Positions 51,841 through 63,090 of a stretch of DNA of 64,000 bases are shown piece after piece. The position numbers and the translations under genes are program-made. The DNA is taken from the sequence record OQ973471.1. One strand, given 5' to 3'. The stretch comes from Escherichia phage AV101. Numbering within the stretch: position 1 is the stretch's first letter; every line of letters begins with the position of its first letter. Below the pieces are notes generated by a model. It worked only from the letters and a program-made list of their open reading frames with translations, was not told the origin of the DNA and did no database searches.

Positions 51841-52948
51841 CCAGTTTGTTCAGGCGTTGTTGGGCAGCATTATAGAAGTGCTCTGCTAGTTTACAGACGT
51901 TGTCGGGGCGCTGAATGTTGTTCCCTGCGCGGATATCCTTCTTCAGGACTTCCACCGCATCGGTCGCCACCATCTCTTCGGTGACCTCAACCTTCTCGGC
52001 AGCAACAGTAATCGTCCGGTCGATGAAGTTGTAGTCAATACACTTGCATCGCTTCATCGCATCACAGAACTTTTCATAATGCTTAGCATTGTCACGGTTC
52101 TGTACAATAACCTTAACAATTTGCCCTTCAATACCCAAGCCTGTGTTCAGCCATTCCGGGTCGATCCAATTACCTTCTTCATCAGAGGACAACTTGGTGT
52201 AATCATATTCCACATAGCGGAACAGCGTCTGGTGCTCGGCGTTCGGGATAAAGATCTCACCACCACGCATGTCGTCTACATAGAAACCACGATTGGTGCC
52301 GTCTTTGTAGTCTTCCCAGTTCAGGTGATATGGAGTCCCAATATATTGAATGTTACCTTCCATCGAACGGGTATGGAAATGCCCCGTGTCGACCCTGGTA
52401 AACTTGGAAAGCAGAGCAACGTCGATCTGACCGTGATCACAAGTAGAAGACTGGTACATTTTGAACCCCGCCAGCTCCAGATGCGCAAAACAGTACTCGG
52501 CGTCTGTATCTTGTATCGCTTTAATAGACGCATCATAGTTCTCCTTGTTGATCCAAGGCAGCAGCAGAGTCTTGACACCCTCGATCATCACTTCGGTCGG
52601 TTCGCTGTAATAGCAGTACACATCCGGGTCGAGTTCGTTCAGGTAGGATGGCCAGTTGATGCGGTTGGACTCTTCCAGGGTGATGTCATGGTTGCCCACG
52701 ATGCCATTCCACTTGATACCAGCCGCTTTCAACGCAGGGGTGAGTTCATCCTTCAGCCAGTCTTTGTCGCGCCCGTACATGAATTTGCGGACATCAAACG
52801 TATCACCGAACTGCCAGACCTCTTTGATATCAGAGTCGGCAAGTTCAGGAATGAAATAATTGATGAGATAGTTCTTGATGAAGTCGCGAACGTATCGAGA
52901 ACCATTACGGCTCCCGATATGCAGATCACCAATTTTAGCAATCGCCAT
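51833..52948 (-). CDS. recombination nuclease subunit gp47 (Mre11/SbcD-like)
   Basis: Phosphoesterase motifs GDLHIG, GDTFD, GNHD, GHFH. Confidence 0.85.
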   Translation of the reverse strand: MAIAKIGDLHIGSRNGSRYVRDFIKNYLINYFIPELADSDIKEVWQFGDTFDVRKFMYGRDKDWLKDELTPALKAAGIKWNGIVGNHDITLEESNRINWPSYLNELDPDVYCYYSEPTEVMIEGVKTLLLPWINKENYDASIKAIQDTDAEYCFAHLELAGFKMYQSSTCDHGQIDVALLSKFTRVDTGHFHTRSMEGNIQYIGTPYHLNWEDYKDGTNRGFYVDDMRGGEIFIPNAEHQTLFRYVEYDYTKLSSDEEGNWIDPEWLNTGLGIEGQIVKVIVQNRDNAKHYEKFCDAMKRCKCIDYNFIDRTITVAAEKVEVTEEMVATDAVEVLKKDIRAGNNIQRPDNVCKLAEHFYNAAQQRLNKLDA

Positions 52949-54275: not shown

Positions 54276-54310
54276 TCCCAAACTGGTTTTATAGAAAGAG
54301 GAATGAAACT

Positions 54311-60485: not shown

Positions 60486-60935
60486 TCAGAAACGGGTATC
60501 GCTGACCGTTCTGTATCGCACACCCTGAAACTGTTTAGCGAGTTTAACAAATTCCATCGCTGGCAAATCAACTTTGTAGACCTTCATGCGCTGTTTGCCG
60601 TCCATGTTCAACGCAGCGACAAATCGGTGAGAACCGTCAACAACGTAATTGTCAGAAGATACCCAAACTCGACCCATAGGTTTCTTATTTCTGATCTGCT
60701 TCATAATCTTCCAGACCTTCATTTTATTGATTTCGTTCTGGGTAAGACGAAGTATTTTGATGGGCACTTGCACAGCATCTATGGACACGCCGTTGTCTTC
60801 AAGATATTTGTGAAAATCTTCTTGTTTGTCGGCATCGATTTGTGGCATAGAAGAACGCGAAAGCCCGAGGTTCCCAACAGGAATCCTCAGGCCGTTAATG
60901 ATGTTCAACCAGTCAATAAAAGATGTAAGGAACAT
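60486..60935 (-). CDS. ParB/sulfiredoxin-like nuclease-domain protein, tentative
   Basis: VPIKILRLTQNEIN and VVDGSHRFVAA resemble the ParB N-terminal domain DGHHR motif. Confidence 0.35.
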   Translation of the reverse strand: MFLTSFIDWLNIINGLRIPVGNLGLSRSSMPQIDADKQEDFHKYLEDNGVSIDAVQVPIKILRLTQNEINKMKVWKIMKQIRNKKPMGRVWVSSDNYVVDGSHRFVAALNMDGKQRMKVYKVDLPAMEFVKLAKQFQGVRYRTVSDTRF

Positions 60936-61159: not shown

Positions 61160-61415
61160 TCAGGATACGAGCGGTGTCGAAAGTTTCCCCGCCCGTGTTC
61201 AGCAGCTTAGTCAGATCGTCAAGATATCGAACCGTGCCAAGATCAGATGACCGCGATATAAACTCCAGCATACCATACAACGCTGTTTGGAATCGGCTGT
61301 TATCGATATCGTTCTTTATTACCATCAGGCGCAAGATGTTCTCTGACTGAGTATGGCCAACACACGCCTTGTCTCTGATCATCTCCTTGATAGAACTTCT
61401 CTCTGATGGTGTCAT
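61128..61415 (-). CDS. hypothetical protein
   Basis: ATGA coupling with upstream gene. Confidence 0.4.
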   Translation of the reverse strand: MTPSERSSIKEMIRDKACVGHTQSENILRLMVIKNDIDNSRFQTALYGMLEFISRSSDLGTVRYLDDLTKLLNTGGETFDTARILIDGGPEEDEV

Positions 61416-61785
61416 AACGTACCCCCGACAGAGATCAAGAACTCTTCTTGCATGGTCTTGACCGGGTGGTGGTTGCGGGTTTCGATCATGAAGCCCCAGC
61501 CGCCGTCGGCGACGTTGCCAAAGGTCTTGACGCCAAAGGACTTCGTCCCGTTGGAGCAGGAATAGATGTCCAGGACGTATGGGCTACCCTGATTGTCGAT
61601 CCCACGATTCACGTCGTCTGATACGCAGCGCTCAATCATCTTCCCGTTCTTATACAGAACGAGGTCTTGGCCATACGCCTTGAAAGCATAAACACCGTTG
61701 GTAGACACTCCGGTGATGACAGGAGGGGCGGAAACAGCAGCAAAGGAAGCGCCTAGCAGGGCAACAGCGAGGATTAACTTTTTCA
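61412..61785 (-). CDS. secreted protein
   Basis: Start ATG about 61785; signal peptide MKKLILAVALLGASFAAVSA; two Cys pairs. Confidence 0.45.
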
Positions 61786-61832
61786 TGATATAGTCTCTTG
61801 GTTTCAAATGGGCGGGGTAATCATACCCCGCC
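61786..61832 (-). repeat. cassette variant with GGCGGGGTA-ATCA-TACCCCGCC hairpin + CATTTGAAA + GAGACTATATC-ATG
   Basis: Hairpin and flanks repeated at 62346-62392. Confidence 0.6.
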
Positions 61833-61838
61833 GTGGGT

Positions 61839-62345
61839 TTATAGAGTAACAAGTGATACGGTAAAAACCATCGTCCCGTCTGTTGCCATTTTTCTTGAAA
61901 CTGGTATGACGCGAGGCTGGCAGAATATCCATTCTTTCTCCATGGACGCCAAGTCCAGCATATCCATTTCTGATTCATCGCCTTTGTTCACAAATTTTTC
62001 TAGAGAACCATAGACATTAAGCCCCTCCGGGAGTCTGTTTCGATGTTTGTAACAAATGCGGGCAACAGCTTTGGTTCCGTACGATTTAGAAAATTTTTTG
62101 GCCACATGCTTCAGTTCACTGAAGCTAAGACAAGAGTCCCATGTCTGGAACATGTCGCCTCGTTCAAACATTATCTCTAAACGCGCAACGTCCTCTTTAG
62201 GCAACCCACGATAAAGTGTGGTCGTCTGTGGTTCGCGCAATTCTTGCACCAGATCGCGGACGGCAGGGGAAACAGTACCGGGGCGCATGATGTGGGACTT
62301 ATCATGGACGAGGTAAAATAAATCTTGAATTTGTTGATCGGTCAT
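61839..62345 (-). CDS. candidate mono-ADP-ribosyltransferase (R-S-E type), tentative
   Basis: Spaced TLYRG (Arg), SCLSFS (S-x-S) and DESEMD (E-x-E) in order and spacing reminiscent of T4 Alt/Mod-type ARTs. Confidence 0.3.
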   Translation of the reverse strand: MTDQQIQDLFYLVHDKSHIMRPGTVSPAVRDLVQELREPQTTTLYRGLPKEDVARLEIMFERGDMFQTWDSCLSFSELKHVAKKFSKSYGTKAVARICYKHRNRLPEGLNVYGSLEKFVNKGDESEMDMLDLASMEKEWIFCQPRVIPVSRKMATDGTMVFTVSLVTL

Positions 62346-62392
62346 GGTATAGTTCCTGCATTTCAAATAGACGGGGTAATCATACCCCGCCC
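62346..62392 (-). repeat. cassette variant copy
   Basis: GACGGGGTAATCATACCCCGCC hairpin + TATTTGAAATGCAGGAACTATACC-ATG. Confidence 0.6.
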
Positions 62393-62404
62393 AAAGTTAT
62401 AGAA

Positions 62405-62644
62405 TTAACTGATGTGCTTCAGAAGAGCGAAGAGGATCGCGGCCTTGGCCTTTACCTTTCCCACGATGCCTGTCTCGACATCAACTTCTTCAGCAACCCA
62501 CTCTTTTCCCTTCTTGCTGATGATAACGTCACGGCGCTGTGCGTAGACTTCTTTGGTCGCATACACACGGCGGAACCCTTTAGCGCGGAGCAATCCCCAA
62601 TTGCGATCAATTTCTACTGAGGTTTCTACCATTTTGTTCTTCAT
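62405..62644 (-). CDS. hypothetical protein
   Basis: 79 aa. Confidence 0.4.
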   Translation of the reverse strand: MKNKMVETSVEIDRNWGLLRAKGFRRVYATKEVYAQRRDVIISKKGKEWVAEEVDVETGIVGKVKAKAAILFALLKHIS

Positions 62645-62766
62645 GTTATAATCTTACCTTTCAACCCGGTGAACCCATCGTTCGCCAGTTATTGAATAAT
62701 AGGACATTCCTTAGAGGAAGTAAACCCCTAAAAGTAAAAATCCCCAACGTTTGTTGGGGACTTCTG

Positions 62767-63090
62767 TTATTTGCGCAGGGCAACCACGAGTTCAGAGAGT
62801 TCACCCATGGTCGGGTCATCGCCTTTACTACCTAGCCACCCGTCGTCGATTTCGACCTGAAACTCTTCTTCGAGGTCCATTACAATTTCGATAGCGTCCA
62901 GTTCATCACCGCCGAGGTCTTTCTTGGTACGGAGGCCAGCCAGCTTGTCCAGGGCGTCCTCGTTCTGAGATGCCACGTCGTCCAGCAATTTGCGCTTGTC
63001 ATCGTCACGCCACAGATCCATATTCAGATTGTCGGTGGCGTACTGAGCCAGATGACGCATGACTTCAACATATGTTGGTTTACTGCTCAT
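62767..63090 (-). CDS. acyl-carrier-protein-like protein with Glu replacing the phosphopantetheine-attachment Ser
   Basis: KDLGGDELDAIEIVMDLEEEFQVEIDD aligns to ACP [27 protein letters not shown]; GGAG RBS. Confidence 0.55.
   Translation of the reverse strand: MSSKPTYVEVMRHLAQYATDNLNMDLWRDDDKRKLLDDVASQNEDALDKLAGLRTKKDLGGDELDAIEIVMDLEEEFQVEIDDGWLGSKGDDPTMGELSELVVALRK

Follow-up and report, generated by a model that had tools for sequence, protein, structure and literature searches.

The window analysed here is a stretch of 64,000 nucleotides of Escherichia phage AV101 (sequence record OQ973471.1). On its minus strand, at positions 61839–62345, lies an open reading frame (ORF) of 168 codons and a stop (ATG at 62345, TAA at 61839–61841), in which the original prediction, made by eye from the letters, had seen an ADP-ribosyltransferase (ART) of the R-S-E type known from phage T4. 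The 168-residue ORF is found at exactly the positions given there, and can now be assigned to the minus strand, which had been left unstated. Judging from profile comparisons and a modelled fold, its product is a small stand-alone ADP-ribosyltransferase of the ModA/ModB family, of R-S-ExE type (ARTC clade). A ribosome-binding site (RBS), AGGAA, lies 8 nt 5′ of the ATG (62353–62357). The program-made ORF list starts the frame at an alternative TTG, giving 175 residues; the annotated orthologs all use the ATG.

The region is 97.5–97.6% identical to Enterobacter phage fGh-Ecl02 and Escherichia phage vB_EcoM-ZQ1, and matches 233 phage records, nearly all from the Ackermannviridae (Kuttervirus, Agtrevirus and relatives). 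The ART protein itself is 99.4% identical to an ORF that the ZQ1 record leaves unannotated, and 93–97% identical to proteins of CBA120 (orf140), PhaxI, Det7, MK-13 and many Salmonella Kuttervirus phages. Most orthologs are named ‘hypothetical’ in public records, and several (RefSeq and Pharokka-style annotations) carry the name ‘RNA polymerase ADP-ribosylase’. We take this product name to be an annotation transfer from ModA and not a finding. Since orthologs are full-length at identities as low as 56%, the ratio of nonsynonymous to synonymous substitution rates is low (dN/dS of 0.06–0.34 against six orthologs) and every catalytic residue is kept, the ART gene appears, as far as its sequence can tell, to be a working gene. 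No second Mod-type ART gene was found in the 64 kb window.

Family assignment, motifs and predicted fold

A search of PHROGs gave one clear match, to phrog_832 (‘RNA polymerase ADP-ribosylase’, the ModA/ModB family), with E = 1.4e-14 over residues 2–159. T4 ModA (1.7e-33) and T4 ModB (1.1e-41) match the same part of this profile, as do 29 of the 32 family members in the alignment described below. We also compared, by profile–profile alignment with hhalign, the query subfamily (36 sequences, without the Mod proteins) with an independent profile of 11 T4-type ModA/ModB proteins; the two align nearly end to end, over 166 columns, with a probability of 99.45% and E = 4.8e-22. In addition, all ModA/ModB clusters that were retrieved carry the precomputed Pfam family PF26816, and so do two orthologs of the query. 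These profile matches, together with the ART fold presented below, bear out the proposal of an R-S-E enzyme of T4 type. Matches to RavZ_cat, to a bacteriocin and to citrate synthase were rejected as noise (E > 0.05).

The original prediction had placed Alt beside ModA and ModB among the likely relatives, and here only the latter two hold. The T4 Alt/VIP2-type family (PF03496) does not match the query at E ≤ 1, compared with 5.8e-36 for Alt itself, and hhalign of the query profile against T4 Alt found no match (probability 0.2%). Alt belongs to phrog_802 and is a protein of 682 residues that is packaged in the capsid and injected, whereas the query has 168 residues, a single domain and no packaging domain. 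An Alt-type identity was therefore rejected.

In an exhaustive HMMER search, 1.84 billion cluster representatives yielded just 58 relatives at E ≤ 1e-3, most of them stand-alone proteins of 160–215 residues, and so the Mod-like ART family appears small and divergent. Members of the Mod family are single-domain, stand-alone proteins of about 160–210 residues, a range within which the 168-residue query falls. By sequence, the family profile reaches as far as Vis (2.7e-5) and ExoT (2.1e-4), with alignments that run through the YRG, S-x-S and E-x-E motifs. One distant relative, the metagenomic protein P0013 (763 residues), shows an unusual combination of an N-terminal Mod-like ART with a type IB DNA topoisomerase (PF01028, E = 8e-21). 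Another distant relative is fused to classical ART domains, and these fusion partners give no pointer to the target.

Conservation was mapped on an alignment of 30 relatives with T4 ModA and T4 ModB (n = 32, with homologs at 24–30% identity). Three residues are invariant (K16, G47 and E138) and nine more are at least 90% conserved (L9, H14, L44, R46, S74, A82, F85, E136 and W139). Motif I, L44-Y45-R46-G47 (62205–62216, minus strand), forms strand β1 (residues 44–47), with the arginine present in 31 of the 32 sequences and the glycine in all of them. R46 corresponds to R72 of ModA and R73 of ModB, and is the predicted NAD-binding (phosphate) catalytic arginine; the R73A variant of ModB is catalytically dead (PMC10468400). 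Motif II, L73-S74-F75-S76-E77 (62115–62129, minus strand), supplies the S-x-S/T signature on the strand formed by residues 72–76, which is followed by a helix (residues 79–88). S74 is found in 31 of the 32 sequences and position 76 is a serine or a threonine throughout. S74-F-S76 aligns with S96-A-S98 of ModA and S99-F-T101 of ModB and, in a PDB profile alignment, with the STS of Vis. Motif III, E136-K137-E138-W-I-F (61923–61940, minus strand), lies at the start of the strand formed by residues 138–142; E138 is present in 32 of 32 sequences, and E136 and W139 in 31 each. The two glutamates align with E163/E165 of ModA, with E171/E173 of ModB and with the E-A-E-V-L-F segment of Vis.

All three strings quoted in the original prediction are present in the protein (TLYRG at 43–47, SCLSFS at 71–76 and DESEMD at 123–128). 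The arginine (R46-G47) and serine (S74-x-S76) assignments made from them hold, while the E-x-E had been placed in the wrong string: the alignment identifies E136-K-E138 (EKEWIF) as the true catalytic pair. D123-E-S-E-M-D128 (61962–61979, minus strand) is the acidic N-terminal end of a helix (residues 124–136) in the ARTT-equivalent region, ahead of the catalytic strand. It was rejected as the catalytic E-x-E on three counts: it is invariant in the close orthologs alone, position 124 is mostly proline and position 126 mixed in the wider family, and the segment is helical in the model. Arginine-specific ARTs, such as iota toxin, ExoS, ART2.2, Vis, ModA and ModB, are marked by an E-x-E in place of a Q-x-E; arginine is therefore predicted to be the acceptor. 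The glutamates of ModA and ModB have reportedly been probed by mutagenesis, in work by Tiemann and co-workers from 2004.

Outside the three motifs, the segment H14-D15-K16-S17-H18 (62292–62306, minus strand) belongs to a family consensus, YLxHDKxH, in which K16 is invariant and corresponds to K48 of ModA and K47 of ModB. HDKxH as a whole is strongly conserved in the query subfamily, whereas ModA and ModB share just its lysine; this invariant HDKxH could mark a distinct substrate-binding feature of the subfamily.

The original prediction had called its own by-eye match weak, and rightly so. A loose aromatic-R…S-x-S…E-x-E pattern occurs in 2.5% of shuffles of the query protein, although of the 128 window ORFs of at least 120 residues just one has it. 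The assignment rests on homology and fold and not on the motifs.

Structure prediction had been put forward as a check, with an unrelated fold as the outcome that would count against an ART; no such outcome was obtained. AlphaFold2 with an alignment of ten close orthologs gave a confident model (predicted local distance difference test, pLDDT, of 85.1; predicted template-modelling score, pTM, of 0.79). With the 36-sequence alignment these values rose to 93.6 and 0.87, with all five models at a pLDDT of at least 91 and an unchanged topology. The first of these models was used for structure searches in three libraries. Against the PDB, the top 50 Foldseek matches are all R-S-E ARTs. In BFVD the best match is the query's own ortholog [template-modelling (TM) score 0.93], followed by one nameless entry and then by ModA and ModB proteins of T4-like phages, with E-values down to 7.7e-11 and TM scores of about 0.68. 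The model displays the split β-sheet of the ART fold, and the motifs occupy their canonical places in it: R46 on the strand of residues 44–47, S74–S76 on the strand of residues 72–76 ahead of the helix of residues 79–88, and E138 opening the strand of residues 138–142.

A repeat-bounded cassette and its probable transcription unit

The ART gene is flanked exactly by two direct repeats of 61–62 nt. The upstream copy (62343–62403, minus strand) consists of TCTATAA, 5–6 nt, a hairpin GGCGGGGTA-tgat-TACCCCGTC (62370–62391), TATTTGAAA, the AGGAA ribosome-binding site and the ATG. The downstream copy (61784–61845, minus strand) has its hairpin at 61811–61832; the ART stop codon falls within its TCTATAA, and the repeat closes with the ATG of the following gene. 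The layout shared by the two copies thus reads TCTATAA, 5–6 nt, GGCGGGGTA-tgat-TACCCCG(C/T)C, (C/T)ATTTGAAA, about 10 nt, ACTATA-N-C-ATG. The GC-rich 9-bp hairpin core occurs exactly twice in the 64 kb, where no copies are expected, and its predicted RNA fold has an energy of about −19 to −20 kcal/mol (z of −3.3 to about −3.5).

Phages without the ART gene (RPN242 and Maynard) keep a single hybrid repeat, whose left half comes from the upstream copy and whose right half from the downstream one. We therefore regard the gene as an indel cassette, whose gain or loss occurs through recombination within the repeat. Divergent orthologs in the phages bering and CRW-SP2 are flanked by the same repeat element. 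Stem-loop-mediated gene shuffling has been described for T4-like phages and resembles the pattern of hairpin repeats seen here. Overall, the ART protein is present in 77 records (11 of them with distant homologs in Erwinia jumbo phages, and 66 others), compared with 233 that share the surrounding DNA.

The TCTATAA heptamer is also found elsewhere in the window, with eight copies on the minus (coding) strand and one on the plus strand, for example at 54289–54295 and 51870–51876. A role for it as a phage promoter motif was considered and dropped, its position relative to gene starts being inconsistent.

This distribution would also suit an enzyme of the same fold and chemistry directed at a host anti-phage defence protein (compare the ART anti-CRISPR AcrIF11), the cassette then being a counter-defence gene that widens the host range. 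The gene is optional and recombinogenic repeats bound it, as is typical of accessory and counter-defence genes. Anti-defence phage ARTs do exist (PMC12421852). On the other hand, the closest characterised relatives, ModA and ModB, act on RNA polymerase and on translation proteins, no AcrIF11-type ART is found among the top structural matches, and no defence-related neighbour was seen. We thus consider a defence protein an unlikely target.

Immediately 5′ of the ART gene lies a gene for a 79-residue protein of phrog_804 (62405–62644, minus strand), which is also present in the ART-less phages. Upstream of it we found a candidate σ70-type promoter, G-TTTACT, 17 nt, TATTAT (62696–62725, minus strand), which matches the consensus at 9 of 12 positions, has a predicted start near 62689 and would also drive the ART gene. 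Its hexamers are kept in six phages, in which the spacer sequence diverges at constant length. Further upstream, after the acyl carrier protein (ACP)-like gene, sequence, conservation and a palindrome scan point to an intrinsic terminator (62729–62760, minus strand) of the form TCCCCAAC-aaac-GTTGGGGA followed by TTTTTACTTTTA. With a terminator and a promoter between the genes, the ART gene is probably co-transcribed with the 79-residue phrog_804 gene, in a unit separate from the ACP-like gene. Among phages that are otherwise near-identical, the 4-nt terminator loop occurs in two inverted forms, aaac (the window, fGh-Ecl02 and RPN242) and gttt (MK-13 and Maynard).

Adjacency to the ACP-like gene, to which the original prediction had drawn attention, consequently carries no functional weight. 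A coupling of the two genes was rejected because the terminator and promoter separate them and because most carriers of the ACP-like gene (about two thirds of the relatives) keep it without the ART gene. The ACP-like protein itself (62767–63090, minus strand) matches PF00550 (E = 5.5e-5) and phrog_4154. At the position of the phosphopantetheine-attachment serine it has a glutamate (DLGGDELD), and a glutamate or aspartate is found there in all nine Ackermannviridae orthologs compared; the corresponding site of Escherichia coli AcpP is DLGADSLD. With a glutamate in place of the attachment serine, the protein is excluded as a conventional acyl carrier; it may instead be a mimic or decoy of an ACP.

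The candidate promoter suggests transcription by the host RNA polymerase, and hence early expression, which implies a putative early unit inside a region otherwise annotated as structural or lysis genes. GTTTAC is the −35 element of T4 early promoters, which the −35 of the candidate promoter resembles. As a general early-promoter signature for the window, GTTTAC-N17–19-TAnnnT was unconvincing (four sites, compared with 1.6 expected). No T4-type late promoter (TATAAATA) was found near the ART gene; the window contains three, all distant.

Directly 3′ of the cassette, a protein of about 124 residues with a signal-peptide-like N terminus (MKKLILAVALLGASFAAVSA…) is encoded at 61412–61786 (minus strand; ATG at 61786), where the program-made ORF extends to 61978. 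Further along, at 60486–60935 (minus strand), lies a gene for a 149-residue protein of phrog_2859 (E = 1.8e-44) with a weak similarity to ParB-like nucleases (phrog_1033, E = 1.2e-3). Its names are inconsistent in public records, being ‘putative structural protein’ in some and ‘cytidyltransferase’ in another.

Comparison with T4 ModA and ModB and probable activity

ModA ADP-ribosylates the α subunit of RNA polymerase at Arg265, and is encoded by a highly toxic early gene of the T4 host-takeover cluster (PMC2988021). ModB modifies translation proteins, including ribosomal protein S1, and can attach NAD-capped RNA (PMC10468400). ARTs are present in roughly 30% of myoviruses (PMC9503650).

The query resembles ModB (207 residues; phrog_832/PF26816) in its PHROG family, in its near full-length profile match and in being a stand-alone single-domain protein. 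The motifs of the two are identical or nearly so (LYRG, S-F-S/T and E-x-E-W), they share the N-terminal lysine (K16, K47 in ModB), and their folds are alike (E = 7.6e-10 and a TM score of 0.63 for ModB in BFVD). They differ in an overall identity of about 17%, in the 39 residues, mostly N-terminal, by which the query is shorter, and in phage family and genomic context (Ackermannviridae for the query, Straboviridae for ModB). ModB furthermore has known features of its own, namely its targets S1, L2, EF-Tu and trigger factor, and its RNAylation activity. ModA (200 residues) belongs to the same PHROG family, and its catalytic R72/S96/E163/E165 correspond to R46/S74/E136/E138 of the query. The best named BFVD neighbour of the query is in fact a ModA (Sf22, E = 7.7e-11, TM score 0.68), albeit the identity to T4 ModA is only about 18%. 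The residues next to the motifs are more like those of ModB: Y45 corresponds to Y72 of ModB (W71 in ModA), F75 to F100 (A97 in ModA) and W139 to W174 (V166 in ModA).

The ARTC toxins and effectors (Vibrio Vis, Pseudomonas HopU1 and ExoS/ExoT, Serratia Tre1) are 8–18% identical to the query. They are secreted or injected with delivery domains or immunity partners, whereas the query has no signal, no delivery domain and no adjacent immunity gene.

From these comparisons the following mechanism may be proposed. The enzyme would be made inside the host after infection, probably from the host-type σ70 promoter along with the 79-residue protein. NAD+ would be bound in a cleft between strand β1 (Y45-R46-G47), strand β2 (S74-F-S76) and the strand that opens with E136-K-E138, where E138 would be the catalytic glutamate, and ADP-ribose would be transferred to arginine side chains of one or more host proteins. 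A host function would thereby be reprogrammed or disabled to the benefit of the phage, as by ModA acting on the RNA polymerase α subunit or ModB on S1 and translation proteins. The cassette between the two hairpin repeats would be gained and lost through recombination between them. By homology, a modification of host proteins by the phage, comparable to that of RNA polymerase by T4, is plausible.

The ModB-like residues next to the motifs raise the question of whether the enzyme could use NAD-capped RNAs in place of NAD+ and attach RNA chains to host proteins. The query belongs to the same family as ModB, for which RNAylation is documented (PMC10468400), and a single-protein profile alignment reaches further into ModB than into ModA. 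However, the identity to ModB is 17%, the sequence offers nothing by which NAD-RNA use could be scored, and among the T4 ARTs RNAylation is reported for ModB alone (PMC10468400). We therefore find such an activity distinctly improbable. That the enzyme is either a ModB-like RNAylating one or an ART aimed at a host defence protein, in both cases on a self-contained cassette that recombines at its repeats, is given a small but appreciable chance.

An enzyme acting mainly as an NAD+ glycohydrolase, which would deplete or rebalance host NAD+ (for instance against NAD-dependent defence signalling) without any specific protein target, seems very improbable. In ART-fold enzymes an attack of water on the oxacarbenium intermediate does lead to NAD+ hydrolysis (PMC9503650), and for the query no particular target can be singled out; yet both glutamates of the E-x-E are conserved, together with a ModA/ModB-like region before them, and both characterised members of the family are protein transferases. 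Finally, a degenerate inactive ART-fold protein, or an unrelated small protein with chance motifs, might be argued from the occurrence of the loose motif in 2.5% of shuffles and from the lack of Pfam and NCBIfam matches, but is effectively refuted by the catalytic residues, which stay invariant or at least 90% conserved among sequences that have diverged by about 75%, by purifying selection, by the high-confidence ART fold and by the profile match to the Mod family (E = 4.8e-22).

We thus think it very probable that the AV101 gene encodes a cytoplasmic mono-ADP-ribosyltransferase of the ModA/ModB family, which acts on host proteins and is carried on an optional cassette. Several observations weigh against this interpretation. 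Single-protein searches of Pfam-A, NCBIfam and PDB sequences returned nothing meaningful, in a Pfam-A copy that lacks the PF26816 model and in which T4 ModB is likewise without a match. Comparison by hhalign of a shallow profile (ten close orthologs) with T4 ModA and ModB taken singly was marginal (probabilities of 54–58%), and the family link therefore needs deeper profiles. The query is 17–18% identical to ModA and ModB, and its N terminus is shorter by about 30–40 residues. As for early expression, the candidate promoter is a 9/12 consensus match in a region where σ70-like sites show no enrichment (nine, compared with 6.6 expected from shuffles). Between this promoter, about 350 nt 5′ of the ART gene, and the gene itself lies the stable hairpin, which could attenuate transcription. 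The neighbours of the gene are small genes, with a vWFA/ACP block on one side and the spanin genes on the other, unlike the early host-takeover cluster of T4, and we found nothing relevant in the literature on ART function or transcriptomes in the Ackermannviridae.

The AV101 protein is an uncharacterised addition to a known family, with an ART label already present in several public records of its orthologs; what goes beyond the T4 paradigm is just the YLxHDKxH motif of the subfamily and the repeat-bounded cassette. The finding will not surprise a specialist, ARTs being common in myoviruses. It does correct the annotation of a gene that is ‘hypothetical’ in most records and bears a copied, over-specific ‘RNA polymerase ADP-ribosylase’ in others, and at 168 residues the protein offers a small example of its family for structure–function work. 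T4 provides the best-understood case of ADP-ribosylation of host machinery, and a Mod-type enzyme is now assigned in an unrelated phage family of therapeutic and biocontrol use, whose genera Kuttervirus and Agtrevirus infect Salmonella, E. coli O157 and Shigella. With about a third of the relatives carrying the cassette and the rest a clean deletion, these phages constitute a natural experiment in which the contribution of the enzyme to infection can be asked.

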